NCBI GenBank assembly: GCA_910586435.1
Contig: CAJUGT010000003.1
Span: 1,782 to 65,781 of the forward strand
Direction of reading: 5' to 3'
DNA from: an uncultured Acetatifactor sp.
Lineage (GTDB): Bacteria; Bacillota; Clostridia; Lachnospirales; Lachnospiraceae
DNA length: 64,000 nucleotides
Part shown: positions 3-58,077 of the stretch, piece by piece
Layout of the letters: each line of letters begins with the position of its first letter
Numbering within the stretch: position 1 is the first letter of the stretch
Position numbers and translations under genes: made by a program
Notes under the pieces: generated by a model
What the model saw: the letters and a program-made list of their open reading frames with translations, nothing else
What the model was told of the DNA's origin: nothing
Databases searched by the model: none

Positions 3-404
3 GCTCTTGACGGGGAATGGGGGTATTCCTGCTATGATATTCCTTCATTTACCACGAAAATGACCAGTGGCTGCATTTTCTTTTCAGACAACCGGCATCT
101 GAACACGAAATCCGACCGTCTCAACAGGATTGCCATACTTCTGAAAACCTTCAGTGACATAAAAAATCTGAAAACTGCCGCCGCATTATATCAGATTACC
201 TTCCAGGAGGAAGACCTCTACGCTTCCATTAGCAGTATCAGCAGACAGGCCGAACTGTGTGAGGAAACAGCAGGGGAATGTCTGAACTTACATCTTTCCC
301 CCTTTCTTAACAAAAAAGTTCAAAATGGACAAACCTTATATCGCTTCACAGGTCCCTATATGGAACTTATACCAAGTCTCATGATGCTTGACACAGTTGA
401 CTGA
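3..404 (+). CDS. hypothetical protein, 5' end probably outside the window
   Basis: The frame of ORF 60..404 stays open back to base 3, so the listed Met may be internal. No motif recognised. Confidence 0.35.
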   Translation, partial: ALDGEWGYSCYDIPSFTTKMTSGCIFFSDNRHLNTKSDRLNRIAILLKTFSDIKNLKTAAALYQITFQEEDLYASISSISRQAELCEETAGECLNLHLSPFLNKKVQNGQTLYRFTGPYMELIPSLMMLDTVD

Positions 405-1771: not shown

Positions 1772-2177
1772 GATTCATTCCTCCTATTCCAGTTCCCGCC
1801 TGCGGGAACTTGTTCCGGTCTCTGCACTTCGGTGCCCCTATGAAGGAAGGGTTATTCAGCCGCTTTTGCGTCTGAAAACCCTTCTCTGTGTCTGAAAGAC
1901 ACATTGCACCCCCGTTTCAAGACTGTTTTTAAATTTCCTCTTGACATTTCTTAGCTGGACTATTGAGTATAAAGTTATCCCCTAATATATTGATAAATTT
2001 TGCCTGCTGGTATTATAGCATATGCTGTTTTAGATTACAAGAAATATGGGATGGTTACTGTCCAGACCTGACAGCTCCAAGTGGCTTGCGGGTACTTTGT
2101 TTCTCCAGGGGACGGCGCAGGAATCATTTAAACAAATGAAAAAGGTTGAATTTACATTGTAATTCCCAGGAGCAAGT

Positions 2178-2469
2178 GGTATAATGTTGACACAGAAAGG
2201 CATTGTGTCAACTTCTGATTCCAAATGCGCTGAAGCGCATGAAATCATGGTATCATGTTGACACTCAAGGGCATTGTGTCAACTTCTGATTCCAAATGCG
2301 CTGAAGCGCATGAAATCATGGTATCATGTTGACACTCAAGGGCATTGTGTCAACTGTTGATTCCATGTGCGCTAAGGCGCGCAAAATCAGGGTATAATGT
2401 TGACACTGAAGGGCATTGTGTCAACTTCTGATTCCAAATGCGCTGAAGCGCACAGGATTATGGTATAAT
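2178..2469 (+). repeat. 4 x 71-bp head-to-tail 'A' units plus a closing GGTATAAT (modular structured repeat family)
   Basis: Units start at 2178, 2249, 2320 and 2391, with period exactly 71. Each is GGTAnnATG-TTGACAC-N11-GTGTCAAC-TTCTGATTCCAAA-TGCGC-TGAA-GCGCA-TGAAATCAT. Confidence 0.9.
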
Positions 2470-2646
2470 ATGTCCATATTCAGGGCGGGAATCGGCCGAA
2501 GGGCCATTAGCTGCCAGTGTCAAATCCACATGCTCCAAAACCAGAGCCATACACAAATGCCGGAACAAAAAGAAATGACCCATGTATAAAAATGTTCGGT
2601 GAAAAAATTCAGATAACCTACACACATATATAATAATATCAAAAAT

Positions 2647-4437
2647 ATGAATTCCAATAATAAAAAATATAATTCTTTTCAGATACCCAAAAGGACAGAG
2701 CATACGGGAGTTCCTACACCTCCCGGAAAGAAAGCTTCCTCCCTTCCCCAGGGACAGATGGACCTCTCCGACTCTTATTATGAGATAGAATACGACTCAT
2801 GTCCCATGCCAGGAGTGGGAAAATATGTATTAAAATCTCAGAAAATAGAGCAGCCCAAAAAGGACCAGGTCAGGGAATTATTCAACCAAATGAGAGATAT
2901 TGCCAGAGAAGACAGGTATCTTAATTTTCGTACCTCCGGTTTCTATGACAAAAAACTCCAGCAAGATAAGTCCCGGATATTTTATAAACAGGGAATATTT
3001 ATGCAGGACTTTGAGGACACCTATGAGCGGCAGGTGCCTTTTTCTTCCTATTTTCCCGATTATCAGATGATGGGATACGAACAGCTCCGAACCTATTTTA
3101 CATGGCGCGCGAAAGTTCGGTCAGGAGACATTGCTGACACTTCCCTTTCCTATGCCTTCCTGTATTTCTACGAACTGCTGAATAACATTGGTGTGAAAGA
3201 CGCACAGGAAGGCATGAATGCAATCATGTCTTTTTGGAAGACTTTTCGTGTATATCACCAGGAAATTGATAAGTATGTCATACACTGGCTGAAAGATTAC
3301 CATATATACTATGATTTACCCTGGTCTTTTAAGGATTTTATCAAAGAAAATAATCTGGGGGTACATTATCCGAAAGTGATAAATCCTGACGATAATTTTG
3401 ATTTTTATTGTTCCTTATCCAAATATGACATACGAAAATCGAAATTCTACAATGATGATACCCTTTGGTTGATTCGGGATTGTTTTGACCATGTGATAAA
3501 GAGATTACGGGATTCTTTGTCCGAGCAGAAGATATTTTTGGAGGATTTACTGTTTCGATCTCCCAAAAACATGACACCCTGGACTCCCTTCCAGAACGCT
3601 TTGTTCTATCCCGGTCTCAGACACAGAGACAAACGGGTAATACTTTCAGAAAAGGAAATCTATGTCCGCAGCCAGAATACATGGAAATTCCACACAACCA
3701 TTGCCACAGAAAGCGGAAAACAGTTCATTGGTTATATAGTAAAGCAGATGGAATCCGTCTTAAGGACGGCCATGAAATACAAGTACAAACTTTCCGTCAA
3801 AAGCGATGCTCTCAGCCAGGACACTGCAAATACATTGTCACAGGCAGGAATCTCCATAGAGAAACTGGTTACGGAAGCCACCATGGAATTCTACCGTGAA
3901 GCCACCAGGACTGTGGTAAAAGTAAATCCGGGCGCATTGGACAAAATCCGTCAGGAAGCATTGATGACACAGGAGAGACTGATTGTGCCGGAAGATGTCC
4001 AGGAAGAACCCTTCGTAGCGAAATCAGAGGACAGTTCTCCCGTCGCCCCTTCTCCAATGGCTGAACAGGACTTTTCCCGTCCTGAACCATCCACTGCCAG
4101 CCTGGATTCTCTTTCTGACCCCTGGGAATGTCTCAGAAACGCTTTCACTTCTCTGGAACAGGATGCTATCATCCATTTGTGGATGAATCAGGAAAATATT
4201 ACTCCATGTACGGAGAGCCCTAAGGCACAAATATGTGACTTGAAGCAGTTTGCTCAAAATAATAATATTATGTTGGAAGTGCTTATAGACGGAATCAATG
4301 AAAAAGCCGTGGACTGCATCGGTGACAGCCTTTTAGACGGAGAATTTGTCTTTTTTGAGGATTATATAGAACAAATAAAAGGAATGGTGAATCAGTTATG
4401 GCAGGAAAAGTACCCACAAGAATTGCCAATATTTTAA
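2647..4437 (+). CDS. sngA: TerB-N/TerB-C domain protein (Shango SngA-like)
   Basis: TerB-N-like signature YFPDYQMMGYEQLRTYFTWRAKVRSG...SYAFLYFYELLNNIG. It is the first gene of a tightly packed three-gene operon. The start is uncertain because there is no clear SD. Confidence 0.65.
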   Translation: MNSNNKKYNSFQIPKRTEHTGVPTPPGKKASSLPQGQMDLSDSYYEIEYDSCPMPGVGKYVLKSQKIEQPKKDQVRELFNQMRDIAREDRYLNFRTSGFYDKKLQQDKSRIFYKQGIFMQDFEDTYERQVPFSSYFPDYQMMGYEQLRTYFTWRAKVRSGDIADTSLSYAFLYFYELLNNIGVKDAQEGMNAIMSFWKTFRVYHQEIDKYVIHWLKDYHIYYDLPWSFKDFIKENNLGVHYPKVINPDDNFDFYCSLSKYDIRKSKFYNDDTLWLIRDCFDHVIKRLRDSLSEQKIFLEDLLFRSPKNMTPWTPFQNALFYPGLRHRDKRVILSEKEIYVRSQNTWKFHTTIATESGKQFIGYIVKQMESVLRTAMKYKYKLSVKSDALSQDTANTLSQAGISIEKLVTEATMEFYREATRTVVKVNPGALDKIRQEALMTQERLIVPEDVQEEPFVAKSEDSSPVAPSPMAEQDFSRPEPSTASLDSLSDPWECLRNAFTSLEQDAIIHLWMNQENITPCTESPKAQICDLKQFAQNNNIMLEVLIDGINEKAVDCIGDSLLDGEFVFFEDYIEQIKGMVNQLWQEKYPQELPIF

Positions 4438-5714
4438 TTAACGCATTAAAAGGCGGCGTAGTGCCCCGAGCCGGACTGGAATATATTACCGTGGGCCGGA
4501 CACAGGAAATTGCCGCCATTCTCCATGATATTGAGATGATTGAAGAAGGCGGCGCTTCTTTTCGCTTTATCGTGGGAAAATACGGAAGCGGAAAAAGTTT
4601 TCTGCTTCAGACCATACGAAATTATGCCACTGCCAGGGGATTTGTGGTGGTGGACGCGGATCTCTCACCGGAACGCCGTTTTGCGGGTACAAAGGGACAG
4701 GGACTTGCCACTTATAAGGAATTGATTCAAAATTTATCCACAAAGTCCAAACCCGACGGAGGCGCTCTTCCACTTATCCTGGAAAAATGGATTTCCGGCA
4801 TACAGACTTCCGTGAAAACCCAGTCTTCCGCCCAGGGGGAGGACTTCGATATTCTGGTGGAAAAACAAATTTATGCCGTGGCGGGTTCTCTGGAAGGCAT
4901 GGTCAATGGATTTGAGTTTGCCAGAGCCGTTGTGCTCTATTGGCAGGCATACAAACAGGACGACAATACTTTGAAGTCCAATGTTCTCCGATGGTTCCGT
5001 GGGGAATACCCCTCTCGAAAAGAAGCCAAAGAAGACCTTGGCATCAATTTTATTGTCACCGATGAGACCTGGTATGATTTTTTGAAGCTTTTTGCCGCCT
5101 TTCTGGTTGGGGCCGGCTACAAAGGAATGCTGGTTATCATCGACGAACTTGTAAACCTGTATAAGATACCCAATTCCATTACCCGCGCCAACAATTATGA
5201 GAAAATTCTCACCATGTACAATGATGTGCTTCAGGGCAAGGCCAGACATATCGGCTTTCTCATGGGAGGTACCCCGCAATGTATCGAGGATAAATACAAG
5301 GGTATCTTCAGTTATGAAGCCCTGCGCTCACGTCTGGCGGAAGGTCACTTCTCCACTGCCGACACCAGAGATTTTTCCGCTCCCATTATCAGGCTTCAGA
5401 TGCTCACCCAGGAGGAAATGTATATCCTGGTGGAAAAATTACAAAATATCCATGCCGGGCTCTACAACTATACCCCTGCCCTGTCCCAGGAAGACCTGGT
5501 ATATTTTCTGACAGTGGAATACAACCGTGTAGGAGCATCCACCCATATTACCCCAAGGGAAATCATTCGGGATTTTATAGAACTAATCAATATTTTATAT
5601 CAAAATCCGCAGAAAACCGTCTCTGAAATTCTGGGAGACAACAGCTTTGAAATGGCAAAGGGCGGAATAGATGGGGAAGAAATACGGGAAGAATTTCAGG
5701 AATTTGAAATATAA
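4398..5714 (+). CDS. sngB: DUF2791/BrxD-like P-loop ATPase (Shango SngB-like)
   Basis: N-terminal GGVVPRAGLEYITVGR, Walker A GKYGSGKS, Walker B LVIIDELVN. Overlaps the upstream gene by 40 nt. Confidence 0.7.
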   Translation: MAGKVPTRIANILINALKGGVVPRAGLEYITVGRTQEIAAILHDIEMIEEGGASFRFIVGKYGSGKSFLLQTIRNYATARGFVVVDADLSPERRFAGTKGQGLATYKELIQNLSTKSKPDGGALPLILEKWISGIQTSVKTQSSAQGEDFDILVEKQIYAVAGSLEGMVNGFEFARAVVLYWQAYKQDDNTLKSNVLRWFRGEYPSRKEAKEDLGINFIVTDETWYDFLKLFAAFLVGAGYKGMLVIIDELVNLYKIPNSITRANNYEKILTMYNDVLQGKARHIGFLMGGTPQCIEDKYKGIFSYEALRSRLAEGHFSTADTRDFSAPIIRLQMLTQEEMYILVEKLQNIHAGLYNYTPALSQEDLVYFLTVEYNRVGASTHITPREIIRDFIELINILYQNPQKTVSEILGDNSFEMAKGGIDGEEIREEFQEFEI

Positions 5715-5732
5715 CACCATTAACCTGACAGG

Positions 5733-7952
5733 ATGAAAAAAATGAACATATTTGACAGACTTGCCCCTTTTATTCAAGACTTTATCTACCAGAACCACTG
5801 GGAAGAACTTCGCGGCAATCAGGTAGCCGCCTGTGAAGTGATATTTGACAGCCATGATAACCTGCTATTATCCTCCGGCACTGCGTCCGGCAAGACAGAA
5901 GCCGCTTTTCTGCCCGTGTTGACCGATATCTACGAACATCCGTCAAATTCCGTTGCGGTGATTTATATTTCGCCTCTGAAAGCCTTGATCAATGACCAGT
6001 TCAAACGTCTGGAACAACTGCTTTTGGATTCCAATATTCCCGTGACAAAATGGCATGGAGACGCCTCCCAGACCCGGAAAAACAAACTGATAAAGAATCC
6101 GGAAGGCATCTTGCAGATTACTCCGGAATCCCTGGAAAGCCTCATTACCAATAAACGCGGCGCCTGCCTGTCCATGTTTTCCGACCTGCGTTATGTCATC
6201 ATCGACGAAGTACATCATTTTATGCGGGATGTGCGGGGAGTACAGCTTCTATGCGTCCTGGAACGGCTCAAAGCTCTCACAGGAGTGAACCCCAGGAGAA
6301 TCGGCCTCTCCGCCACTCTTGGAGATGTGTCCGTGGCACAGGAATGGCTGAATACCGGAACCGGACGGGAATGCGCCGCCCCCATTATGGATGAAGGAAA
6401 GAAAAGAATCCGGCTTCACATTGAACGATTTGTAAATTACGCAGATAAGCGGGATCTGGTGGAACGGGATGCCATAGGAAACATCGAACGAACGGACTCC
6501 GGCGGTGATATTGGAGACAGGGAACATTACGAATACCTTTTCCAGCAGACACTGGACAAGAAAACCATTCTCTTTACCAACAGCCGGGAAGAAACCGAAC
6601 TTGTCATGGCCCATCTTCGGGAAATTGCATTAAAACATAAAGCCCCCGACGTGTACAGGGTTCATCATGGAAATGTCTCAGCTCTCCTGCGGGAGAACAC
6701 GGAAGACGAAATGAAATCCGAGGACGAAAAAATTGTCACCGGCGCCACAGTGACTTTGGAACTTGGCATTGACATTGGTTCCCTGGATCAGGTAGTGCAG
6801 GTGGGCGCCCCTTTAAGCGTATCCAGTTTTGCCCAGCGCCTTGGCCGCTGCGGACGCCGGGGACAGGTGCCCCAATTGCTTTTTACCTTTGTGGAAAGCC
6901 TGAAAATTAATTCTTCTGATATTTTAGGCCCTATTAACTGGAATTATATCCGAACCATTGCCATCATTGAACTCTATCTGAAAGAACATTGGCTGGAACC
7001 CATTCCTCCCCTGTACCACGCCTATAACCTGCTGTACCACCAGACCATGAGCTGCCTGAAAAGCAATGGGGAAATGTCCCCTGCCGGCCTTGCCCAGTCC
7101 GTACTGAGCCTGGGATGCTTTCGGTATATCCCTCAGAAGGATTACAAACTGCTCTTAAATCACCTGATTCAAATAGAACAGCTGGAACGGACAGAAAGCG
7201 GAGGGTTGGCAATCGGACGTGCCGGAGAAAAAATAGTAAACAGTCACAAATTTCTAACCGTTTTTTTAGCGCCGGAATATTTTCTGGTAAAAGATGAAAA
7301 CCGCACCATTGGCACTGTGGACAAGGTATATCCGGTGGGTACCCATTTTTCTTTGGCAGGAATCTCCTGGGAAACTGTTGACGTCAATGAAAAGTCAAAG
7401 GTTATTTTTGTCAAACGGGTTCCCGGTATCTCAGTCGTAGACTGGGATGTGGACTTTGAAGTGGAACTCCATACCATTCTGGTGAAGAAAATGCGCAGTA
7501 CTCTGCAAACAGAGGATTCTTATCCTTACCTGAGCGAACGCTGCAAGGAACGATTACAGGAAATACGGTATATTACCCGCAACAGCGGTATTTTGGAACA
7601 TTTGGTGACACCACTTTCCGAAAAAAAATACGCCGTCTTCCCCTGGGTGGGCACCAGACAGCTCGTCACACTCCACTATGCCCTGCTGCAACGGAAAATT
7701 AAGAGCAAAATCCCGTGGAATATGAGCGTATATCTGGAAGTCATTTTTGAAGGGACAAAAGAAGAACTGGAACAAATCATTTTTGATATACTGTCCAAAA
7801 ATCTGGATACCTACGGCTTGCCCCTGCCTGACAAGATACAGATTCAGGGCAAATACAATGAGTTCATTCCTCTGAAATTACTGAGAAAACAGTTTATTGA
7901 AGACTTTCTGGATTTTGAGGGATTGCGGAATGATTGCCTCCTGCAACAATGA
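5733..7952 (+). CDS. sngC: superfamily-2 DEAD/DEAH (DEVH, Lhr-like) helicase (Shango SngC-like)
   Basis: Motif I SGTASGKTEAA, motif II IIDEVHH, motif VI QRLGRCGRRG. Starts 19 nt after sngB. Confidence 0.75.
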   Translation: MKKMNIFDRLAPFIQDFIYQNHWEELRGNQVAACEVIFDSHDNLLLSSGTASGKTEAAFLPVLTDIYEHPSNSVAVIYISPLKALINDQFKRLEQLLLDSNIPVTKWHGDASQTRKNKLIKNPEGILQITPESLESLITNKRGACLSMFSDLRYVIIDEVHHFMRDVRGVQLLCVLERLKALTGVNPRRIGLSATLGDVSVAQEWLNTGTGRECAAPIMDEGKKRIRLHIERFVNYADKRDLVERDAIGNIERTDSGGDIGDREHYEYLFQQTLDKKTILFTNSREETELVMAHLREIALKHKAPDVYRVHHGNVSALLRENTEDEMKSEDEKIVTGATVTLELGIDIGSLDQVVQVGAPLSVSSFAQRLGRCGRRGQVPQLLFTFVESLKINSSDILGPINWNYIRTIAIIELYLKEHWLEPIPPLYHAYNLLYHQTMSCLKSNGEMSPAGLAQSVLSLGCFRYIPQKDYKLLLNHLIQIEQLERTESGGLAIGRAGEKIVNSHKFLTVFLAPEYFLVKDENRTIGTVDKVYPVGTHFSLAGISWETVDVNEKSKVIFVKRVPGISVVDWDVDFEVELHTILVKKMRSTLQTEDSYPYLSERCKERLQEIRYITRNSGILEHLVTPLSEKKYAVFPWVGTRQLVTLHYALLQRKIKSKIPWNMSVYLEVIFEGTKEELEQIIFDILSKNLDTYGLPLPDKIQIQGKYNEFIPLKLLRKQFIEDFLDFEGLRNDCLLQQ

Positions 7953-18022: not shown

Positions 18023-18508
18023 CTATATAATTTCTACTCTCTCAAAATATTTCATTAATATATCAGCGCAGTTTTCAATTCCCAGCCTGGAAGTATCCAA
18101 TATCATATGGTAATTATTCACATCCCCCCAAACCTTTCCTGTGTTCTGATAATAATATTCCGAACGTGCCTTATCGTTTTTCTCCAACAGGGCTTTTGCC
18201 TCTTCATAGGATAGTTTTTCTTTCTTCATAATCCTTTGAATGCGATCTTCCTTGTCGGCACAGACATAGATATGAAATACATTGGTCTGATCCTTCAGAA
18301 TCTCAGAAGCACATCGTCCCAAAATAATACAGGAATTTGCTGCCAGGTTCCTGATGACTTCCGCCTCATCCACATAACTGTCTCCTTCCAGCTCATGTTC
18401 AATATAAGCTCTGTCATACACCGGTATTTCAAGCTTTTGGGACAATTCTCCCGCTATCATACTTGCACCGGTTCCAAACCTACGGCTCATTGTAATCACC
18501 AGATTCAT
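18023..18508 (-). CDS. cytidylate kinase-like family protein
   Basis: N-terminus MNLVITMSRRFGTGASMIAGELSQKLEIPVYDR is typical of the Cytidylate_kin2 family. GGGAGG RBS. Confidence 0.7.
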   Translation of the reverse strand: MNLVITMSRRFGTGASMIAGELSQKLEIPVYDRAYIEHELEGDSYVDEAEVIRNLAANSCIILGRCASEILKDQTNVFHIYVCADKEDRIQRIMKKEKLSYEEAKALLEKNDKARSEYYYQNTGKVWGDVNNYHMILDTSRLGIENCADILMKYFERVEII

Positions 18509-18587
18509 AATTCATCCTCCCGTACCGATAAGGATTTCATGCTTTGACAATTTCCATCAAATTGCCCTGCCAATACCCCTTATCTTT

Positions 18588-18841
18588 CCATGGCCATTCG
18601 GCCGGTTCCTGCCTTCCATAATTTCGTGTGTTTCAACACACTTGGAATCAGAAGTTGACATAACGTCTTTTGTGTCAACATTGTACCATGATTTCCGCAA
18701 TGCTTCGGGCAGAGACCCGAAAAACCTTCTGTTTTTCGGGTTCGCTTCGCTTGCCAAATGTCCAAAGAAGCATCTGCTCAAACAAGTTTGGCAGTTGCTT
18801 CTTTGGACGCTTGGCTCTGCCCTTTGCGGACATTGTACCAT
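18588..18841 (-). repeat. composite B + A + C modules of the structured repeat family (minus orientation)
   Basis: The reverse complement of 18690-18841 aligns almost base-for-base with 58078-58233. 18616-18689 is an A unit. 18588-18613 resembles 2484-2510. Confidence 0.9.
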
Positions 18842-18969
18842 AGTTTTACCCTTGTTACAAGTCTGTGAAAACGGTAAATGCAGGCAAAGAAATTTCCCGT
18901 ACCCCGAATCACCTTGCGGCGGCACCGAGTGAACAGTAATTTTTTGTTACGTTCACTTAGCATGACAAA

Positions 18970-19533
18970 TCATATTTGAAATAAACTGCCCACCGCCAAT
19001 TTTACCACACCACAGCAGACCATTACCAGAATCGGATTTTTCTTCCAGATACGAAGCACCAGAAAAGCAGCCAGAAATATGCCGCACTCCAGCCAGTGTA
19101 TATTGGCAAAACTTACTTCCGCCCCATCAAAGGCCACAAGTTTTAAAATGGACAGACCTGCTGCCGCAATCAAGGCCACAACCGCAGGCCGAAGACTTCC
19201 CAATACGCTTTGCAGCGCAGACATTTGCTTATAACGATAGTAAATAAAAAATAACAGGGACACTATCAGACAGGAAGGCAGGATACAGCCAATGGTGGCT
19301 ATCACCGCCCCAGGAATTCCGGCGATGCGAATGCCCACGAAAGTTGCAGAGTTTACCGCAATGGGTCCGGGAGTCATTTCCGCAATGGTTATCAAATCGG
19401 TAAACTCACTCATGGTAAGCCAACCATGTTTTGTTACCACCTGTGCCTGTATCAGGGGCATGGCTGCATACCCTCCGCCAATGCTGAACATCCCCACCTG
19501 AATAAAACTTAACAATAACTCTAAATAAATCAT
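18970..19533 (-). CDS. chromate transporter (CHR family, short half-size protein)
   Basis: FSIGGGYAAMPLIQ...EMTPGPIAVNSATFVG motifs. Confidence 0.8.
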   Translation of the reverse strand: MIYLELLLSFIQVGMFSIGGGYAAMPLIQAQVVTKHGWLTMSEFTDLITIAEMTPGPIAVNSATFVGIRIAGIPGAVIATIGCILPSCLIVSLLFFIYYRYKQMSALQSVLGSLRPAVVALIAAAGLSILKLVAFDGAEVSFANIHWLECGIFLAAFLVLRIWKKNPILVMVCCGVVKLAVGSLFQI

Positions 19534-19659: not shown

Positions 19660-20250
19660 TCATGATTTCTTTTTCCGTTTCCACACTTCCATACAGATAC
19701 CTGCCAATGCCGCCGCAAGAATAATGTATATCACATTCACTTCCCATACAAAGGTTGCCAGAAACGCTGTAATCATCACAATTAAATGTATTATATTACG
19801 GTTTTTCAAAACTCCCGACCCAAGACCGCATACCACATCCAGAATCACGGCAGCCACGCCTGCCTGCATTCCTTTCAGCAACAGAGCAATATATGTATTG
19901 GTTGCAAAAGCGGCATAAAAAAAGGAAATTACAGATAACAACACCATGGGTGGAATAATAGTTCCAATCACCGCAATTAACATGCCTGGAAAACCACCCA
20001 TTCTCCACCCCACCAATATGGCCGCATTCACGGCAATTGCCCCCGGAGAAGACTGGGCCAATGCGGCCAAATCCAGCATTTCATCTTCCTCAATCCAATG
20101 ATACTCATCTACAAATTTCTTCTTCATAAAGGTAATGATTACAAAACCTCCCCCAAAAGTAAACGCGCTGATATACAAAGTACTGAAAAATAATTGAAGT
20201 AATATTTTCTTCTTATTCTCTTCCATCTCTATCTTCTCCTGCTCTGCCAT
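19660..20250 (-). CDS. chromate transporter (CHR family, partner half)
   Basis: FTFGGGFVIITFM...QSSPGAIAVNAAILVG. Paired with 18970..19533, as is usual for split ChrA. Confidence 0.8.
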   Translation of the reverse strand: MAEQEKIEMEENKKKILLQLFFSTLYISAFTFGGGFVIITFMKKKFVDEYHWIEEDEMLDLAALAQSSPGAIAVNAAILVGWRMGGFPGMLIAVIGTIIPPMVLLSVISFFYAAFATNTYIALLLKGMQAGVAAVILDVVCGLGSGVLKNRNIIHLIVMITAFLATFVWEVNVIYIILAAALAGICMEVWKRKKKS

Positions 20251-20327: not shown

Positions 20328-20550
20328 ATTTTACCATGATTTCGTGCGCTTTAGCGCACTTGGAATCAGAAGTTGACACAATGCCCTTCTGTGTCAACAT
20401 TTTACCATAATTTTGTGTGCTTCAGCACACATGGAATCAGAAGTTGACACAATGCCCTTCTGTGTCAACATTTTACCATAATTTTGTGTGCTTCAGCACA
20501 CATGGAATCAGAAGTTGACACAATGCCCTTCTGTGTCAACATTTTACCCT
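20328..20550 (-). repeat. 3 x 71-bp 'A' units (minus orientation) upstream of the chromate transporter genes
   Basis: TACC junctions at 20332, 20403, 20474 and 20545 (period 71). Units 2 and 3 are identical. Confidence 0.9.
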
Positions 20551-21388: not shown

Positions 21389-21449
21389 GAGCATGTTTGA
21401 AAATTGCTTTCTGACAGCTGTGCTTACAAAGCAATTTTCAAACATGCTC
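21389..21449. repeat. perfect 22-bp-stem hairpin downstream of the HIT gene
   Basis: GAGCATGTTTGAAAATTGCTTT-N17-AAAGCAATTTTCAAACATGCTC. No T-run follows, so it is not a classic terminator. Confidence 0.7.
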
Positions 21450-21455
21450 TAGTAC

Positions 21456-21607
21456 TCCATCCGGTCAGTAATCGTACTTTCAGTACCGCCTATTTTGCCA
21501 TCTACTGCGTTGTCGTCAGCAGGCGTGTCCACCGCATCGTCTCCTTCCTCCGCCTTGCAGACTGCCAAAATATTTGGCACTGGCAGTGCAGTTACTGACC
21601 GGATGGA
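21456..21607. repeat. ~150-bp element bounded by ~22-bp terminal inverted repeats (MITE-like)
   Basis: AGTACTCCATCCGGTCAGTAAT ... GTTACTGACCGGATGGAGCACT. The same termini form the hairpin at 1102-1149. Confidence 0.65.
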
Positions 21608-21695
21608 GCACTAGGCACTGGAAAGGGTTTCTTGCTCTCTTGCGCAAAACCCCGAGACAGCAATGCGCCAAACCCAATAGAAAGGAACCCGCCTT

Positions 21696-31518: not shown

Positions 31519-32367
31519 TCATTTGATTTTAAATCTTGCCATTTTTTCTAATGTATTGCTGTCAATGTTGCAGACAGCATCTATGATATAATTTCGATAC
31601 GTGGCATTTCCATCCACTTTCCCCATTCTCTTGTATGCCATTTCTCCACATACTCCCATGGTACATACGGCCGCTGCCGCCGCTTCCAGAATGTTTTCAG
31701 GGCAGGCGGTAATGAAAGCCGCTGTCAGAGCCGAAAGCTGGCATCCTGTTCCTGTTATCCTGCTCATCATAGGATGCCCATTATAAATGCAGTAGGCTTT
31801 TTCTGCGTCGGCAACAATGTCTATGACGCCTGTAATTGCAATTATGGCATGGCTTTTCTCCGCAAAGGCTTTTGCAAAGCCTATGGCTTTCTCCAGATTG
31901 TCTTCTGTAATTACATCATTTACATTGGCGTCCACTCCCTTTGTAGAACCGCTTCCCATAGCAAGTGTTTTTATTTCAGAACTGTTTCCCCGTATGACAC
32001 TGAATTTCACTTGCTGCATCAATTGAACTGCCGTATCCGTCCTTAACGCCGAAGCACCCGCGCCCACAGGATCAAGTACCACAGGATGTCCCAATTCATT
32101 GGCTTTTTTTCCGGAAGCGAACATGGCAGGTATTGTCCTTTGATTTAAAGTTCCTATATTGATATTCAATCCTCCGCATATGGATGTAATTTCCTCCACT
32201 TCGTCAATATCATCGGACATTATGGGCGACCCGCCACAGGCCAACAATATATTGGCGCAATCATTTACAGTCACATAATTTGTAATATTGTGAATCAATG
32301 GATGATACTTTCTCACATCATCCAAAATTTCTCCAAACATCATTTTTGCTCTTTCTTCCAATTTCAT
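31519..32367 (-). CDS. thiM: hydroxyethylthiazole kinase
   Basis: HNITNYVTVNDCANILLACGGSPIM and ITGTGCQLSAL motifs. Start at MKLEE, with a GGAAGGAG RBS. Confidence 0.85.
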   Translation of the reverse strand: MKLEERAKMMFGEILDDVRKYHPLIHNITNYVTVNDCANILLACGGSPIMSDDIDEVEEITSICGGLNINIGTLNQRTIPAMFASGKKANELGHPVVLDPVGAGASALRTDTAVQLMQQVKFSVIRGNSSEIKTLAMGSGSTKGVDANVNDVITEDNLEKAIGFAKAFAEKSHAIIAITGVIDIVADAEKAYCIYNGHPMMSRITGTGCQLSALTAAFITACPENILEAAAAAVCTMGVCGEMAYKRMGKVDGNATYRNYIIDAVCNIDSNTLEKMARFKIK

Positions 32368-32486
32368 TTCTCCTTCCCATTGATAAGATAATAAGTTATG
32401 AGCCCTCGTGTGCATAAAAAAAGAAGTCAGCCAGCCTGGTAACTTCCGTAGAAAATACATTGCTACACCACAGTAAATGTATGTGT

Positions 32487-32585
32487 CTCAAATCCTATGA
32501 TCCCTACGTTGGCATTACCCAAATCAGGTTATCGGTCGAAGGTCATACCTTCCTCTCAGCCTGTCATACAAGCTCCCGTTTCTTC
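32487..32585 (-). promoter_or_regulatory. TPP (THI-box) riboswitch
   Basis: The minus strand reads GGGAGC..GCUGAGAGG..ACCUUCGACCGAUAACCUGAUUUGGGUAAUGCCAACGUAGGGA, matching the conserved THI-box core. It lies ~120 nt upstream of thiM. Confidence 0.85.
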
Positions 32586-32856
32586 AATTTTGTTTATTAT
32601 ACACCTTTTCCAGAGGCTTAGCAAGTTATGACGCTACCTATTTTTTTTTCAGCTGCCTCCTGCTTCTCACGCAGCCTTGACGAGTATTGTCCATGCCTGA
32701 CAATTATGGCTGAACTGGTGTTCCAGGTTGTAGCCATAGTTTTATATTAATCTGCTGCGAATTAAGTTTAAGTCAGAATATGTTGATTGTATATTAGAAG
32801 GGAAAATGTTATACTCATATATGAAATCTTTCTATTCTATTGGAAAGTGAGGGAAA

Positions 32857-34341
32857 ATGATGTATATTTCATTGAAACAGCTTATAAAAAATATAACTTT
32901 ATTTCTGGCTCTTTTCTTCCTCTTTGGAGGATTTTCTTCTCATGCAGAGGAACTGACCCCTGTTTTCACTTTATCCACAGGCGGCGACGGAACCTATATG
33001 AAAGACGGCGACTACAATACATCCTATACCTTTCAAGCAGGCGACACAATCTCCGTAACATCAAAAGAAAACACTCCCATTTCCGGACTCTATATTATTT
33101 GGGACAGCCTGGTTCCAGAGTGGACCTTACATACGGATGCGGAAGATATTCTCTGCGGCCAGCACGGATTCCTGCATGAATACATTTCTCTTAATTCACC
33201 TGCGGCAGACACAGTTATCAATATTCTTCATGACAATGTTCGCATAAGTGATATTCGCGTTTTTGGTGAAGGCACACTTACGGAGGATGTACAGATATGG
33301 AATCCTCCTTGTGAGAGGGCGGATATTCTCCTTGTGCCGGCCCATGCGGATGATGAAATACTCTTTTTTGGAGGAATTATCCCAACCTATGGCGTAGAAC
33401 AGGAGGCCCAAATTCAGGTTGCCTATATGTCCGAGTTCTGGAGTTCCGCAAAAATTCGCGAACATGAAAAACTGGACGGTTTATGGGAAGCCGGACTGCG
33501 AAACTATCCCGTATGCGGCAATTTTAAAGATGTATATTCCGATACATTGGAGAAAGCTCAGGAACAGTACAATTTCGATGACATGACAGCCTATATCACA
33601 GAACAAATCCGACGCTTTAAGCCCCAGGTCATTGTAACACATGATGAAAAAGGGGAATATGGACATGGTTTCCATATGCTGACATCAAAAGCCGTAACTA
33701 CGGCAGTGGAAGCCGCTTCAAATGAGACTCAGTATACGGACTCCGCTTCCCTGTATGGCATATGGGACACCCCAAAGACATATCTTCATCTATACAAAGA
33801 AAATATGATACGCCTGGACTTAAGGAGTCCCATAGAATCCATGGGCGGCCGTACTGCGCTTGAAATAGCCGCAGATGCCTATAAAAAGCATGTTTCACAG
33901 CAATGGTGCTGGTTCTATGTATCGGATGATTATGAATACAGTTGCGCGGAATTTGGTCTATACCGCACATTGGTTGGCACTGATTCTCTGGGAAATGACC
34001 TTTTGGAGAATTTGAAAACCTATAAAGTTCAGCAACAGGAAGAAGAGCGCCTGGAAGCGGAACAGAGGAAATTAGAAGAGGAACGCCTGGAACGGGAAAG
34101 AAAGGAACAGGAAGAACAGCTGAGACTGGAACAGGAAAAACGGGAACAGGAAGAACAGCTGAGACTGGAACAGGAAAAATTGGAACAAGAGGAACAGCTG
34201 AGACTGGAACAGGAAAAACAGGAGCAGGAAGAACAGCTTTATTCTTTTATTATGATTCTGTTAATTATCATGGGCATATTGCTTACCATACTGATTATTG
34301 CGGGAACAGGTATGATTTTAAAAAGAAAAAACAGAAAATGA
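32857..34341 (+). CDS. PIG-L/LmbE-family deacetylase with signal peptide, C-terminal coiled-coil repeats and a TM anchor
   Basis: LLVPAHADDEILFFGG and THDEKGEYGHGFH motifs. N-terminal signal-like LFLALFFLFGGFSSHA. C-terminal hydrophobic LLIIMGILLTILIIAG. Confidence 0.75.
   Translation: MMYISLKQLIKNITLFLALFFLFGGFSSHAEELTPVFTLSTGGDGTYMKDGDYNTSYTFQAGDTISVTSKENTPISGLYIIWDSLVPEWTLHTDAEDILCGQHGFLHEYISLNSPAADTVINILHDNVRISDIRVFGEGTLTEDVQIWNPPCERADILLVPAHADDEILFFGGIIPTYGVEQEAQIQVAYMSEFWSSAKIREHEKLDGLWEAGLRNYPVCGNFKDVYSDTLEKAQEQYNFDDMTAYITEQIRRFKPQVIVTHDEKGEYGHGFHMLTSKAVTTAVEAASNETQYTDSASLYGIWDTPKTYLHLYKENMIRLDLRSPIESMGGRTALEIAADAYKKHVSQQWCWFYVSDDYEYSCAEFGLYRTLVGTDSLGNDLLENLKTYKVQQQEEERLEAEQRKLEEERLERERKEQEEQLRLEQEKREQEEQLRLEQEKLEQEEQLRLEQEKQEQEEQLYSFIMILLIIMGILLTILIIAGTGMILKRKNRK
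34105..34236 (+). repeat. in-frame 39-bp tandem repeat (about 3.4 copies) encoding (R/Q)EQEEQLRLEQEK
   Basis: GAACAGGAAGAACAGCTGAGACTGGAACAGGAAAAACGG is repeated from 34105. Confidence 0.85.
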
Positions 34342-34717: not shown

Positions 34718-36550
34718 TTATGTATAATACTGGGCCTGAGCATCCCACAATTCCCTGTACAGTCCTTCCTGATGCTCTAATTCTTCATGTTTCCCCCTTT
34801 GTATTACATCACCTCCATCAAATACCAGAATATCTTCACAGAACCGGCAGGAAGCAAGCCTATGGGATATATAAATGGCTGTCTTATTGCCCACCATCTT
34901 ATCAAAGCCAGCATATACTTCACATTCTGATTCCGGGTCCAGGGCAGCGGTAGGTTCATCCATAATGACAAAGGGAGCATTTTTATATATGGCACGGGCA
35001 ATGGCAATTTTCTGCTTCTCACCACCGGAAAAAGTCACACCTTTGTCATCAAATTCTTTGCTGATATTCGTGGAAAGCCCTTTTTCCAGATTTCCATAAC
35101 ACTCCCCAAGACCAGCTCTGTTCAGTGCGTCCACCGCACGCTCTTCTTCCACTTTAGTCCCTGCTGCCACATTTTCTCCCAACGGAAACGCAAATACCTG
35201 AAAATCCTGAAAAACGACGGAAAATAATTGACAATATTCTGTATAATCATATTTTCTAATGTCAATTCCATTTACTTTAATGCATCCCTCAGTCACATCA
35301 TACAGACGGCACAAAAGTTTGATAAATGTAGTCTTGCCCGATCCGTTTCTGCCCACTATGGCCATTCTCTCTCCAATGACAAATTTCAGATTCAAATCCT
35401 TTATCACATATGTTTCACTCCCGGGATACTTAAATGAAACATGATCAAATTCTACGGAGAACTTGCCATCCTGACGTTTTTCCATGGGTATGGTGCCTTC
35501 GTGTTTTCTCTGTGGCAGACCCATATATTTCACATAATCCCCGGCAAATGCACAATTTCCGCTAAGCCAGCTCAATTGATAAGTAGCCCTTCCTATGGCA
35601 TCCATAAATTTCAAAATACTTGCCGCGTAAGTCACCACACCTCCAATGCTGATGATTCCGGCGCAGGCCAGCAAACCGGCAAACACATATACAAGAAAAC
35701 CAGTGACAGCGGAAACAGATTGTTCCGTAAATATATCCAACATGATATAATGTGCCATTTTATTCATAGTTCTCTTTACATTGGACTCAATGCGCCGAAA
35801 TTCCTTCTCATATAAATTCTGCTGTTTACATATTCTTAAATCTTTCTGTTTCTCATATCCCGAAAGAATTTCAAGATAATATTTGTTTCTGGTTTCATCG
35901 TTTGACATTTCTTTCCTGGCATCCGCTACTTTTTTACTGAAATACCTTCCCATTTGAAATTCTGTTATGACCAGAAAAATGACCACCACAAAAAGAAGTA
36001 TCGACATGAGCCAGGAACCCATAAACCCCTCGGACAGAGAGTGACTGCCCCGGATAAACATGGGAACCACCACAAAAAACGCCATTAAAACCGTAGTGGC
36101 CGCAGTCATAATTTTATTCAGAACACTTAGAGTAATTGCCGTCAGGCTCCACCCTCCAAATTTTTCGATTCTCTGCCGCATTTCGTGAATTCCCACATCT
36201 TCCAGGTACTCATAATCCATGGACATGCTCTTTTGGTTCATGGGCTGTGCCTGAATCTCCTGCATATACTCAAGCTTTCGATTAAAAAACATGGTGAGAA
36301 TGCCTTCCATAACGGACATTAGAAAGATTCCACCCACTCCCATGGCTGCGTACCGCAACAATTCCCCAATACTTTCTCCCGCATATACTGCGTCCACCAG
36401 CATTCCTGTCAAAATTACGGCAATAAAAGGACGTGTCCCCATAAATATGGATAAACATACCATGCTGATTAATACATCTTTATGCTTCTGAACCAGGTTT
36501 CCCAAAAGGGCAACTATATTTTTCCAATCTTTTCTACTCATCAAATACAC
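34718..36550 (-). CDS. ABC exporter, fused permease/ATP-binding protein
   Basis: Walker A GRNGSGKTT, signature FSGGEKQK, Walker B FVIMDEPTAALD. The N-terminal half has 6 TM segments. Confidence 0.85.
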   Translation of the reverse strand: MYLMSRKDWKNIVALLGNLVQKHKDVLISMVCLSIFMGTRPFIAVILTGMLVDAVYAGESIGELLRYAAMGVGGIFLMSVMEGILTMFFNRKLEYMQEIQAQPMNQKSMSMDYEYLEDVGIHEMRQRIEKFGGWSLTAITLSVLNKIMTAATTVLMAFFVVVPMFIRGSHSLSEGFMGSWLMSILLFVVVIFLVITEFQMGRYFSKKVADARKEMSNDETRNKYYLEILSGYEKQKDLRICKQQNLYEKEFRRIESNVKRTMNKMAHYIMLDIFTEQSVSAVTGFLVYVFAGLLACAGIISIGGVVTYAASILKFMDAIGRATYQLSWLSGNCAFAGDYVKYMGLPQRKHEGTIPMEKRQDGKFSVEFDHVSFKYPGSETYVIKDLNLKFVIGERMAIVGRNGSGKTTFIKLLCRLYDVTEGCIKVNGIDIRKYDYTEYCQLFSVVFQDFQVFAFPLGENVAAGTKVEEERAVDALNRAGLGECYGNLEKGLSTNISKEFDDKGVTFSGGEKQKIAIARAIYKNAPFVIMDEPTAALDPESECEVYAGFDKMVGNKTAIYISHRLASCRFCEDILVFDGGDVIQRGKHEELEHQEGLYRELWDAQAQYYT

Positions 36551-38450
36551 CTCTCTCTTCCCCTGTTTTCACCTCATAAATGTCACCCATCAGCTGACTT
36601 TTTATCTTTCTTTCCTTTTCTTCCTGGTAATACTGGCTCTGGACTTGAAATAACTCCGCATATCTGGTCTTACCTGCAAGCAGCTCCTCATGCGTGCCCT
36701 CCTCAATGATTTTCCCATGCTCTAAAAGCAATATTCTGTCACAAAACCTGGTACTGGACAAACGATGAGAGATATAAACACTGGTCTTATGCTCCATGGA
36801 TTTCCCATAATTTAAGTATAATTCATTCTCCGCAATGGGGTCCAATGCCGCCGTGGGCTCATCCAATATTACCAAAGGTGTATTCTGATATAGCGTCCTT
36901 GCAAATAACATTTTCTGCTTTTCGCCGCCGGAGAAATCAGTGGAACCCTGATTGACTTCCCTGACCAATAATGACCCTCCCTTTTTGGGAAGTTTTTCAT
37001 AAACAGTTTCAAAATGAGACAATTCCAATGCTTTTTTCAGGTTTTCTCTGTCTATTTCTTCCAGATTTTGTCCTGTCAGATTTTCATCCAGACTTAATGC
37101 CATCATGGTAGAATCCTGAAACAATACGGATATTAGACTATAATATTCCTCCCTGCTAAATTCCTGTATGGGAATGTCGTTTAATAAAATATCACCTTCT
37201 GTAGGATGATAAAAGCCACACATCAATTTTACAAATGTGGTCTTTCCGGCGCCATTTAATCCAATAAGCGCTATTTTTTCTCCTGGTTTGATAACCACAT
37301 TTATATTTTTCAACGTTGGTTTCTCATTGCCCGGATAGGTAAAAGAAACATTTCTGAATTCAAGCTTTACAGGATTTTGTTTTATTTGATTCAGTTTATC
37401 TTTTCCAATCCCTTCTCCTCTGTTCCATCGGTCTTTTGTCTCCAAAAATTCCCTCATATAACTGATGGAAGCACTGGTATTATTAAATCCCATTACCTGT
37501 CTCAGGACATCTTCAAAATAAAGCGCAAAACCATTCACCAAACCAATATAAAATACAAACTCCGCAACGGTAATCCTTCCATTCACTAATAAATGAATTA
37601 AAAATCCATAAGTTGCTCCATTCATTAAAAGCTGCAAGAAAGCATGGAAAATATTTCGGAACAGATACCAGTCATGTATGATACCATACATTTTCCCCAT
37701 CTCCTTCAGTGAATCATCATATTTTTCAAGAAACCAATCCAGAAGATGATAGATGCGAATATCCTTTCCCGCTGCGCTGTCCGTTGCCTGGGCGGTAATA
37801 TAACTTTCCTTTCTGGCAGAGAGCTGCAATTTCTCATAATACTCACTATGCTTCTTCCTTGCAATAGAAAGAAGCCACAGACTTATCCCCAGGGAAAACA
37901 TGATAATTGCCAGAAGAAGTATGCTTTTTCCTGCCAGAAGAATTCCGTAAAGCATCACACCCACCATGGAAGAAAGGAACATGGGAAATGAAATAACCGC
38001 ATTTGAAACACCCTGCCCAAAACGTGCCACACGCCAGGCATTTCCGGATATTTTCTGAAACTCCTCATCTTCCAGACAGTCATAGTCCACATCCATTATT
38101 TTATGTACAAATTTACCGGCATAATGATATTGAATAAACTGCCCTATATTACCGCAATATTCAATGAGCATGTTGTATACACAATTACATATCCACATCA
38201 TGACCGCAATGAAAGCCATATGAAATACCAAATGAGGAATCGTAATCTGCGCAGTCAAATCCTCCACCAGTTTAGAGGGCAGATAAGTTCCCAACAGAGA
38301 ACCAAAAGCCCCTGGCACCACTGCGAAAATCTGTGCCCAGAACAGCTTCCTGTCCCACTCTTTGGTTGCTTTCATGTTATAAAGAAAGTTACTGATAAGC
38401 CCATATTTTCTTCTTGACCTATCATCAAACACCTTGTTCATATACAGCAT
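36534..38450 (-). CDS. ABC exporter, fused permease/ATP-binding protein (heterodimer partner)
   Basis: Walker A GLNGAGKTT, signature FSGGEKQK, Walker B LVILDEPTAALD. Start at MLYMNK after AGGAGG. Confidence 0.85.
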   Translation of the reverse strand: MLYMNKVFDDRSRRKYGLISNFLYNMKATKEWDRKLFWAQIFAVVPGAFGSLLGTYLPSKLVEDLTAQITIPHLVFHMAFIAVMMWICNCVYNMLIEYCGNIGQFIQYHYAGKFVHKIMDVDYDCLEDEEFQKISGNAWRVARFGQGVSNAVISFPMFLSSMVGVMLYGILLAGKSILLLAIIMFSLGISLWLLSIARKKHSEYYEKLQLSARKESYITAQATDSAAGKDIRIYHLLDWFLEKYDDSLKEMGKMYGIIHDWYLFRNIFHAFLQLLMNGATYGFLIHLLVNGRITVAEFVFYIGLVNGFALYFEDVLRQVMGFNNTSASISYMREFLETKDRWNRGEGIGKDKLNQIKQNPVKLEFRNVSFTYPGNEKPTLKNINVVIKPGEKIALIGLNGAGKTTFVKLMCGFYHPTEGDILLNDIPIQEFSREEYYSLISVLFQDSTMMALSLDENLTGQNLEEIDRENLKKALELSHFETVYEKLPKKGGSLLVREVNQGSTDFSGGEKQKMLFARTLYQNTPLVILDEPTAALDPIAENELYLNYGKSMEHKTSVYISHRLSSTRFCDRILLLEHGKIIEEGTHEELLAGKTRYAELFQVQSQYYQEEKERKIKSQLMGDIYEVKTGEERGVFDE

Positions 38451-38574
38451 AATATTTCCTCCTGCCCAGTTCCGCAACTTGTCCGGTCCGTTGCTGTTTT
38501 TTCATATCCCATTTGACACTACCATGCAAAATTACCTTGCACCATTCGCCAAATGGATGCTGGCACATCCGCTT

Positions 38575-38655
38575 GGCTCATTGCACGCAGGAATCAAAAG
38601 TTGACATAAGGTCCTGCTGTGCCAAGCTTGTAACGTGATTGCTCTGAAATCATGG
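38575..38655 (-). repeat. degenerate/partial copy of the A unit of the structured repeat family
   Basis: GCACGCAGGAATCAAAAGTTGACATAAGG..GTGCCAAG followed by CTGAAATCATGGTATGGG. Confidence 0.55.
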
Positions 38656-58073: not shown

Positions 58074-58077
58074 ACAT

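Follow-up and report, generated by a model that had tools for sequence, protein, structure and literature searches.

A 71-nt tandem array upstream of a Shango operon as a probable local expansion of a modular, promoter-resident repeat family in Acetatifactor

Is the tandem repeat that points toward the Shango operon of an uncultured Acetatifactor sp. (Lachnospiraceae) a device that controls this operon, or a sequence that the operon happens to adjoin? The locus belongs to a stretch of 64,000 nucleotides (nt) (assembly GCA_910586435.1, contig CAJUGT010000003.1), the whole of which was analysed here and is referred to as the window; the repeat consists of four structured units of 71 nt each that follow one another without spacers upstream of sngA, the first gene of the operon. 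The answer given by the window, together with related loci in public genomes and metagenomes, is that the array is not a Shango-specific regulator and that its link with Shango is incidental. With somewhat better than even confidence, we consider it a local expansion of a genus-wide, promoter-resident, modular family of dispersed repeats in Acetatifactor. Under the best reading, this family is BOX-like and self-duplicating, and its modules are probably co-transcribed as a structured leader.

The array was examined by direct reading and with Tandem Repeats Finder, which reports a 71-nt period at 2177-2452 (3.9 copies, 88% matches, 0% indels). As the initial annotation had it, four gap-free units, here called A units, occupy 2178-2248, 2249-2319, 2320-2390 and 2391-2461 of the plus strand, and a fifth box, GGTATAAT at 2462-2469, closes the array. 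Units 1 and 4 open with the box GGTATAAT, and units 2 and 3 with GGTATCAT; in unit 1, the box is followed by hairpin 1 (2186-2212), a linker and hairpin 2. The palindrome of the A unit, GTTGACAC-N11-GTGTCAAC, is exact in all four units, and with up to 3 mismatches, it is matched 9 times in the window against 0.16 matches expected by chance, a count reached in none of 100 shuffles. The common unit template proposed by the same annotation is exact in units 1 and 2 and needs amendment in the other two: unit 3 reads ...CTGTTGATTCCATGTGCGCTAAGGCGCGCAAAATCAG, with another linker and a 7-bp hairpin 2 (TGTGCGC-TAAG-GCGCGCA), and unit 4 ends in ...GCGCACAGGATTAT, with another tail. Likewise, the extended -10-like motif that had been ascribed to every junction is without its TG at the junction of units 3 and 4 (AGGGTATAAT). 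The GC-rich module that was described behind the array (2470-2509), with a relative on the minus strand at ~18588-18616, is real and represents the first 48 nt of a separate 72-nt module, B; it forms, with the closing box, the segment 2462-2509 (+), and positions 1-48 of the B consensus match here with E = 1.2e-5 (nhmmer).

The unit is dispersed over many genomes. A scan of 185,579 species-representative genomes with a 22-base pattern over hairpin 1 and the linker, for which ~0.07 chance matches are expected, detects the A unit in at least 96 genome blocks from at least ~23 genomes. Among the matches listed, the hosts are nearly all Acetatifactor or Lachnospiraceae, including mouse-gut metagenome-assembled genomes (MAGs), A. 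aquisgranensis DSM 110981 and an A. muris MAG; one genome contributes up to 24 blocks, and nhmmer delineates at least 167 A units in at least 113 arrays, which consist of 1 (80 arrays), 2 (19), 3 (9), 4 (3) or 5 (2) units. A second pattern matches 57 rodent-gut metagenome contigs, and viral contigs yield no matches to the repeat pattern. The window alone contains, beyond the array upstream of sngA, a three-unit array, two solitary A units, a degenerate unit and two modules of another type, X. The genes downstream of the copies in the window are unrelated (Shango, the chromate transporter ChrA, a cytidylate-kinase-like protein, a DHH protein and an ABC transporter), and those at other loci, recognized by their N-termini, are presumably kinases, response regulators, a Sir2-like protein and others. 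Of the possibilities considered in the initial annotation, a BOX/REP-like modular repeat is the one that gains support, since the modular family is dispersed in multiple copies over many genomes and precedes genes that are unrelated.

Position and orientation were counted for arrays among the matches listed, using crude gene calls (greedy long open reading frames, ORFs). There are 32 arrays between divergent genes vs 1 between convergent genes, and between co-directional genes, 29 arrays are in the sense orientation vs 3 in antisense; for 10 more sense arrays, there is an overlap with an ORF call that results from the crudeness of the gene prediction. The median distance from the end of an array to the downstream start codon is 85 nt, and the units of one nhmmer array all share the same orientation. 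In a replication on 21 independent metagenome loci, 17 arrays face the downstream gene and 4 do not. The description of the array as aimed at the Shango operon is accordingly right as to orientation and misleading as to its meaning, because the family nearly always faces whichever gene is downstream. A box can also occupy the 3' end of a gene: at locus L057 (~330-360, minus strand), the left box overlaps the end of the upstream gene, whose last codons and stop, ATG GTA TAA, lie within TATGGTATAAT.

The family comprises several types of modules, which were defined by cutting the array regions at GGTAnAAT-like boxes and clustering the pieces. Apart from A (71 nt, 111 segments), the unit of the sngA array, these are A' (95-96 nt, 7 segments), an A unit whose hairpin 2 has a nested hairpin at its tip, A'' (98 nt, 3 segments), a variant found at locus L006, B (72 nt, 12 segments), C (142 nt, 7 segments), X (150-168 nt, at least 3 segments) and Y (153-166 nt, 2 segments). 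The nhmmer totals over all loci are 36 B, 45 C and 10 X modules. All types terminate in ...AAT(C/T)AT, followed by the box, and they occur as runs of A alone as well as in mixed strings, such as C-A-A-A-A, A-B-A-B, X-A-B and A-Y, which are always direct and always delimited by boxes. Each module begins directly after TRTG-G-TAnAAT and ends just before another copy of this motif. The suggestion that some last units are cut off straight into the Shine-Dalgarno sequence proved wrong, the cases in question being A' modules with their nested hairpin. At L006 (22-384, plus strand), the A'' unit, present in three tandem copies, contains an internal duplication of the linker together with the 5' half of its hairpin 2.

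The box that delimits the modules has the profile of a promoter element. In 88 unique A units, box columns 1-8, which are outside the search pattern, read G (83), G (83), T (83), A (87), n (T 52, C 21, A 15), A (82), A (88) and T (84), that is, the T, A, x, A, A, T conservation profile of a sigma-70/SigA-type -10 hexamer, TAnAAT, the third position of which is the known weak position of such hexamers. The unique left flanks end in T (66/93), A or G (86/93) and T (79/93), followed by the G of the box, so that the resident site is TRTG-G-TAnAAT, a Firmicute-type extended -10. A -35 match of at least 4/6 at a distance of 16-18 nt is found at 30% of the leftmost boxes vs 14% of shifted controls (p = 4e-4) and at 9% of the internal boxes; for matches of at least 5/6, the values are 13% for the leftmost boxes vs 2.4% for shifted controls, an enrichment that is not universal. 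An extended -10 can do without a -35 element. In the case of the sngA array, the promoter scan reports a -35-like hexamer, TTGTAA, at 2157-2162 (+), in unique sequence 17 nt 5' of the TATAAT of the first box; the combination TTGTAA-17-TATAAT has 10/12 matches, with TG ahead of the -10 hexamer. Two other likely promoters in the window carry C, not G, between the TG and the hexamer, so that the G is specific to the repeat-associated box. The GGTAnAAT boxes thus probably behave like real extended -10 elements. A mini-ORF, ATG-GTA-TAA, over the junction was rejected for want of an upstream ribosome-binding site.

How modules and boxes come together can be read from sites that are filled in one genome and empty in another. 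Synteny among the loci provides four clean ortholog comparisons, with homologous gene starts downstream in each pair, and without exception, a single TRTGGTAnAAT-type box occupies the empty site, whereas the filled site has modules with a box on either side. Locus L068 reads tattat, GGTACAAT, a C module, GGAATAAT, four A units, GGTAATT and aggaaaacg...ATGAGCTTTATGGATGAGTTTAATTTCTGG, and L076, its empty ortholog, reads acatat, GGTAAAAT and aaggaaaag...ATGAGTTTTAGGGATGAGTTTAATTTCTGG. In the other pairs, L021 has box-A-box vs one box in L094, L025 has box-B-box-A-box vs one box in L033, and reciprocally, at another gene, L033 has box-A-box vs one box in L025. One box at the empty site and two like boxes at the filled site show that the arriving module duplicates or regenerates the resident box.

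Base 5, the only freely variable position of the box (T, C or A), bears this out. It matches across the module in 70/84 cases vs 44 expected under within-genome permutation of the right-hand boxes (p < 5e-5) and, for modules with a unique left flank, in 74/93 cases vs 47.5 expected; in one genome, the flanking pairs are C/C in 13, T/T in 9 and A/A in 4 cases, with three discordant pairs. To judge from the sequences, such concordance is the signature of target-site duplication or of an equivalent local copying. The modules are thus flanked by a target-site duplication, the length of which falls within 4-11 nt, a range left wide by the near-invariance of the other box positions.

A scheme for the growth of the arrays suggests itself. 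The regenerated box would allow more modules to be added at either copy, and unequal recombination between boxes would expand or shrink a run; addition and recombination at boxes would give spacer-less head-to-tail arrays and mixed strings of the C-A-A-A-A, A-B-A-B and X-A-B kinds. The leftmost box would keep the gene's own -35 element and probably fires, in which case the modules would be transcribed as a hairpin-rich 5' leader, and the last box, which fronts the gene's original leader, may act as an extended -10 promoter without a -35. Candidates for the spreading machinery include a site-specific or single-strand-DNA enzyme acting at the box and template switching between boxes. Rather than serving as a dedicated regulator, the repeat family is probably selfish or near-neutral and influences expression as a side effect.

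This scheme admits a bolder version, which we put forward tentatively, as a possibility on the doubtful side: the modules could be "promoter-homing" mobile DNA, with one machinery that inserts unrelated modules at TRTGGTAnAAT, possibly read as the melted or sigma-bound open complex, and duplicates the box. The host gene would then keep its promoter, and the module would gain transcription and a fresh insertion target. If true, bacterial mobile elements would have a new principle of target selection, and promoters and leaders could be stacked by a natural mechanism.

Several points weigh against the expansion of a self-duplicating repeat family. The duplication signature comes from one informative box position (position -2 is marginal, with 65 matches vs 59.7 expected, p = 0.05), and local gene conversion could yield an equal concordance of boxes. 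Twelve of 77 arrays finish in a box and a partial A unit; such ends are not predicted by a clean cut-and-duplicate process and are more in keeping with recombination or template switching. Comparison of the ends of A, B, C and X reveals no terminal inverted repeats: the ends of A, GTTGACAC... and ...GAAATTAT, are not inverted copies of each other, and the best case, the 5 nt ATAAT/ATTAT, is the box itself. No transposase or recombinase partner was detected in ~1.2 Mb of flanking sequence, and no IS-like or other long multi-copy sequence in the ~0.7 Mb that the module-bearing genome loci provide, a search that did not extend to whole genomes. The search patterns fixed hairpin 1, so that its near-perfect conservation is partly a sampling effect, and the gene calls behind the position counts are crude. 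That any box is active as a promoter and that the modules are co-transcribed is inferred from sequence patterns. At the window's own locus, copy-number variation among strains is hidden by contig breaks inside the array: the only two public contigs with an identical SngA (L097, 1-357, and L098, 1-206) both end within it. The ChrA protein of the window has no record in public sequences, and synteny of the fetched module-bearing loci with the window is limited to one weak block.

The Shango operon itself, at 2647-7952 (+), is a neighbour of the repeat only. It consists of sngA (2647-4437), sngB (4398-5714) and sngC (5733-7952), and what had been annotated as Shango-like is a complete Shango system, with full-length PADLOC matches to SngA (2.3e-65), SngB (2.3e-182) and SngC (2.7e-219) and the Pfam domains TerB_N/TerB_C, BrxC_BrxD and DEAD/Helicase_C. 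The second array, at 20328-20548 on the minus strand, comprises three A units (20478-20548, 20407-20477 and 20336-20406) and the closing box GGTAAAAT (20328-20335), the units (20336-20548) being upstream of a chromate-transporter gene (19660-20250, -). The chromate transporter is a split ChrA pair of half-size genes, 18970-19533 (-) and 19660-20250 (-), with Pfam Chromate_transp matches of 2.7e-49 and 1.7e-44; the array precedes the first of these genes, and an X-A-B string follows the second. This string starts with an X module of 152 nt at 18688-18839 (-; nhmmer E = 6.3e-44), the first bases of which are the box GGTACAAT and which contains nested hairpins, and continues at 18588-18687 (-) with a solitary A unit (18617-18687, box GGTACAAT) and a B-like fragment (~18588-18616), upstream of the cytidylate-kinase-like gene (18023-18508, -). 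The X module is 93% identical to 58071-58251, where the second X module (58080-58231, +; nhmmer E = 3.5e-40), with the box GGTATAAT at 58080-58087, is followed by a solitary A unit with a decayed box (GGAATAAA) at 58232-58301 (+), 36 nt 5' of the DHH/DHHA1 gene (58337-59260). An X module precedes each of the two solitary A units in the window. The degenerate composite at 38520-38690 (-), upstream of the ABC-transporter gene (36534-38477, -), contains the end of a B-type hairpin (CCATACCATGATTT...) and then a decayed A core (38590-38629). Almost certainly spurious ORFs of 57-122 amino acids (aa) cross the modules at 18557-18925 (-), 2030-2248 (-) and 2416-2589 (+), and automatic annotation could call them genes.

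Tandem repeats of other kinds are present elsewhere in the window. A 69-nt array of at least 4 copies with 93% matches occupies 63722-64000 and runs off the window; one minus-strand frame is open through the copies and encodes a 23-aa repeat (...FAGLAELTTTEQVKIQTFETYGS...), so that the array probably belongs to a minus-strand gene with C-terminal repeats, and one plus-strand frame is open as well. E/Q-rich in-frame tandem repeats, with periods of 15, 24, 36 and 39 nt, are found at 34034-34238 within the ORF 32857-34341.

Could the units instead function as RNA, that is, as a cis-acting leader or a tandem small-RNA array, the product of which binds a protein or ligand, stabilises the 5' end of the mRNA or is released as 71-nt RNAs? 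We consider this unlikely. The units are nearly always in sense, between a promoter-like box and a start codon, and covariation backs both hairpins. In an alignment of 88 unique A units, 97% of the cells pair in the two-hairpin structure vs 24-50% in slid registers, 8 pairs are changed on both sides vs 2.2 in shuffles (0/500 shuffles reach 8), and both hairpins are recovered by RNAalifold. The covariants of hairpin 2 include GTGCGC/GCGCAC, ATGCGC/GCGCAT, GTGTGC/GCACAC and GCACGC/GCGTGC; at its tip, the tetraloop is free, and A' carries a 24-nt nested hairpin there. Even with sampling that puts no constraint on it, the linker, TGATTCCAT, hardly varies, and the array folds far better than shuffles (z = -6.7). 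However, the antisense strand folds equally well (z = -7.4), the ends of the units have no terminator or U-tract, the downstream genes have no pathway in common that would call for a shared ligand or regulator, and variable copy number and interleaved unrelated modules are unlike riboswitches or leaders. The excess of 137 G-U over 10 A-C pairs, which had suggested selection on sense RNA, was withdrawn because the 5' half of the "outer helix" is fixed by the search pattern; most of the 137 G-U pairs stem from three polymorphic 3' positions, and once sample choice is allowed for, the excess vanishes (13 G-U vs 10 A-C in the inner stem without pair 47-64). In 53 units unbiased for hairpin 2, the outer helix has A-A mismatches in 13 and T-T mismatches in 8.

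Searches against Rfam speak against an RNA leader, too. At the gathering threshold, the only match in the window is a thiamine pyrophosphate (TPP) riboswitch elsewhere; at E <= 10, both arrays and the X module give noise only; nine loci with B, C, X, Y and A' give tRNAs only; and ARAGORN reports nothing relevant to the repeats in the window. The TPP riboswitch (RF00059, 61.4 bits, gathering score 54.3) lies at 32484-32589 (-), upstream of an ORF at 31519-32460 (-). The tandem small-RNA array suggested in the initial annotation is left unsupported by units that are without terminators, without an Rfam match and without a strand-specific structural signal. Among additional RNA structures, an alternative hairpin of the loop CAGAAG with the linker CUUCUG, which concerns transcripts starting at the unit's own box, is predicted by folding and was rejected because it shows no covariation (18-38: odds ratio 1.4, p = 0.5, 30 A-C mismatches). 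A loop-to-linker pseudoknot was rejected on steric grounds. A pairing between the linker ATTCCAT and the ATGGTAT of the next junction, of the kind found in B's terminal hairpin, was rejected because A-unit box variants such as AGTA are uncompensated.

The hairpins might also be read as DNA, by an HUH (Y1) transposase or a RAYT-like enzyme of the REP/IS200 type that recognizes them in single-stranded form and inserts 3' of a TAnAAT-like target in exposed single-stranded DNA, for example, the lagging-strand template or the melted -10 of an open complex. Such an enzyme would account for the importance of hairpin shape over sequence (compensated variants, free loops), the absence of terminal inverted repeats, the fixed short boundary sequence and the strict orientation, and the junction itself is part of the terminal hairpin of B, ATACCATGATTG-AACTG-CAATCATGGTAT, of which L005 and L022 have compensated variants. 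This explanation is nonetheless quite improbable. IS200/IS605 insertion leaves the target unduplicated, unlike the flanking boxes here, which share a locus-specific variable base, and the hairpins differ among the module types, so that one hairpin-specific enzyme would not move all of them. There is no tnpA- or RAYT-like multi-copy gene beside the modules (a genome-wide search was not made), and the distribution observed here is opposite to that of REPs, which typically lie 3' of genes or between convergent ones. An unrelated dispersed long palindrome, CTAGTGTTCCATCCGGTCAGTAACCGCA / TGCAGTTACTGACCGGATGGAGCACT, occurs in the window at 1095-1159, with contiguous arms, and at 21449-21617, with the arms ~60 nt apart; both copies are 3' of genes and are REP-like or terminator-like.

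Operator arrays of a global regulon, in which the palindrome, lying over the predicted transcription start, would be the duplex site of a dimeric repressor and the number of units would tune the repression of many genes, are very unlikely. To be sure, the palindrome directly follows the box, in a position that would let a repressor block promoter escape or the formation of the open complex, its pairs are almost purely Watson-Crick (692/704), and its loop is fairly conserved (~nnAAGGnCATT). Its near-perfect conservation is, however, partly imposed by the search patterns, and a variant, (A/G)(T/C)CGAAAC...GTTTCG(A/G)C, stands beside the standard palindrome in the same genome or array (L016, L019, L064, L076, L006). 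One sequence-specific protein would not read both versions; the coexistence of the compensated form of hairpin 1, TCGAAAC/GTTTCGA, with the standard form in one genome and one array points to hairpin shape rather than to one duplex-DNA-binding protein. Furthermore, the palindrome is absent from B, C, X and Y, although these have the same box in the same context, the entire 71 nt, including hairpin 2, is conserved and tandem, unlike transcription-factor sites, a distance of 19 bp between half-site centres is unusual, and the downstream genes have no common function. Of the stacked promoter/operator cassettes envisaged at the outset, then, the promoter part probably stands, on the strength of the -10 profile, the TRTG, the single box at empty sites and the -35 enrichment at the leftmost boxes, and the operator part is left unsupported by the two versions of hairpin 1 in one genome and the functional heterogeneity of the downstream genes.

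We give equally little credence to insulated promoter cassettes that benefit the host. Here, each unit would be an extended -10 promoter, with hairpin 1 and a U-rich tail that weakly terminate transcription entering from upstream; RNAs begun at the unit itself would start in the 5' arm and so escape hairpin 1, the arrays would buffer read-through, and the last box would set expression. Hairpin 1 followed by UUCUGAUU is indeed the only terminator-like site that the scan reports in the region, with a hairpin stability of -11.8 kcal/mol, and the box is almost always left beside the gene's own leader. Transcription is expected to start ~7 nt after TAnAAT, and the start so predicted falls inside the 5' arm of hairpin 1. 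Yet the terminator would be a poor one, with 3-4 G-C pairs, a 7-11-nt loop and an interrupted U-tract, the internal boxes are without -35 elements, B, C and X have no comparable layout of hairpin plus U-tract, and the unit at an orthologous site (L050 and L087) is ~86% identical, only modestly above the ~78% of the coding flanks, so that strong purifying selection at orthologous sites was rejected as well. The array of L048 faces the divergent gene and is an independent event.

The remaining candidates can be dismissed briefly: a CRISPR array is incompatible with the 63 nt between boxes, which are one and the same unit (90% mean column identity over 88 copies) and not diverse spacers, and integron attC sites with GTGTCAAC and GTTGACAC, which do not fit RYYYAAC...GTTRRRY, with a box that does not fit the core site GTTRRRY and with arrays scattered over many loci.

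If the expansion of a promoter-resident repeat family is the right explanation of the sngA array, a common mouse-gut genus has, in each genome, dozens of promoters occupied by insertions through which the -10 box of the promoter itself is regenerated. This placement is unusual, given that most small repeats of bacteria keep away from promoters or have inverted repeats as boundaries, and it raises the question what places DNA at -10 boxes. The loci offer a natural series of 0 to 5 tandem extended -10 elements with structured leaders in which transcription and the fate of the mRNA can be measured. On the practical side, the repeats break short-read assemblies, as in both public contigs with this sngA, can mislead annotation through spurious ORFs over the arrays, and can be mistaken for locus-specific regulators of the adjoining gene, the Shango operon being a case in point. 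All told, this is a moderately interesting small bacterial repeat with an unusual, testable property, the duplication of an extended -10 box.

How does the family compare with known systems? By their defining features, it does not belong with MITEs (miniature inverted-repeat transposable elements) or BOX, which have terminal inverted repeats, or with REP/REPIN, CRISPR, integron attC or any Rfam family, and no description of a box-bounded repeat family of Acetatifactor was found in a literature search of incomplete coverage. By analogy, BOX is the closest in architecture, and Correia elements are the closest in the creation of promoters.

BOX (boxA-boxB(n)-boxC in S. pneumoniae, with modular types in S. 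suis) resembles the Acetatifactor family in being a small dispersed intergenic repeat with interchangeable modules, one of which is tandem in variable number without spacers, with differing end modules and predicted stem-loops if transcribed. The A(1)B(n)C(1) order with inverted-repeat outer ends differs from the free direct strings seen here, every Acetatifactor module boundary is a duplicated extended -10 box, nothing of which kind is described for BOX, and hosts and unit lengths set the two apart by description (A is 71 nt long, and boxB 45 nt). The Acetatifactor modules are also without terminal inverted repeats, whereas those of BOX resemble ISSpn2 (PMC3049150). BOX affects the expression of neighbouring genes, and its size variation has been ascribed to unequal crossover or to excision and reinsertion (PMC3049150). 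According to a table title in the same source, pneumococcal repeats are over-represented between convergent genes (PMC3049150), the reverse of the trend in Acetatifactor, with 1 convergent vs 32 divergent arrays.

The Correia elements (CREE) of Neisseria, unlike the Acetatifactor family, do not form modular tandem arrays and are not limited to one orientation in promoters. They duplicate a TA target. They are summarized as dispersed elements that can create or carry functional promoters and form hairpins when transcribed (PMC3049150, PMC3575422), and they are MITEs bounded by 26-bp inverted repeats (PMC3049150). The BrickBuilt MITE of Porphyromonas gingivalis, with its spacer-less tandem units, "leader" and "tail" subunits, exclusively intergenic location and promoter-active segments (PMC4596501), shares the tandem units within the repeat and the link to promoters, and differs in its 23-nt units, inverted-repeat ends, bidirectional promoter activity and host phylum, with no -10 box duplication described.

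REP/BIME/REPIN sequences, with their RAYT, are likewise short, dispersed, hairpin-forming repeats that are abundant per genome and have a conserved short motif beside the hairpin. REPINs, however, are inverted pairs, whereas the Acetatifactor units are strictly direct, with a duplicated target and no RAYT seen near the modules, and the location of REP/REPIN 3' of genes or between convergent genes is not that of the Acetatifactor arrays. CRISPR and integron cassette arrays provide a topological analogy only, in that insertion regenerates the junction, be it the CRISPR repeat or the core site of the integron, and the array grows head to tail; the Acetatifactor arrays consist of a few constant module types, not of captured foreign DNA, are spread over dozens of loci and have a junction of 8-11 nt that doubles as a promoter element.

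The putative mobile promoters of Matus-Garcia, Nijveen and van Passel (2012) are sequences of high similarity that recur, within and between genomes, in front of genes unrelated to one another; the majority have no Rfam match and an unknown mode of movement (PMC3575422). The screen that defined them used the region from -150 to -50 relative to the start codon, which mostly excludes the -10 box (PMC3575422). The Acetatifactor family would qualify as one of these; the category is, however, operational and without anatomy, whereas here, the -10 box is the defining junction.

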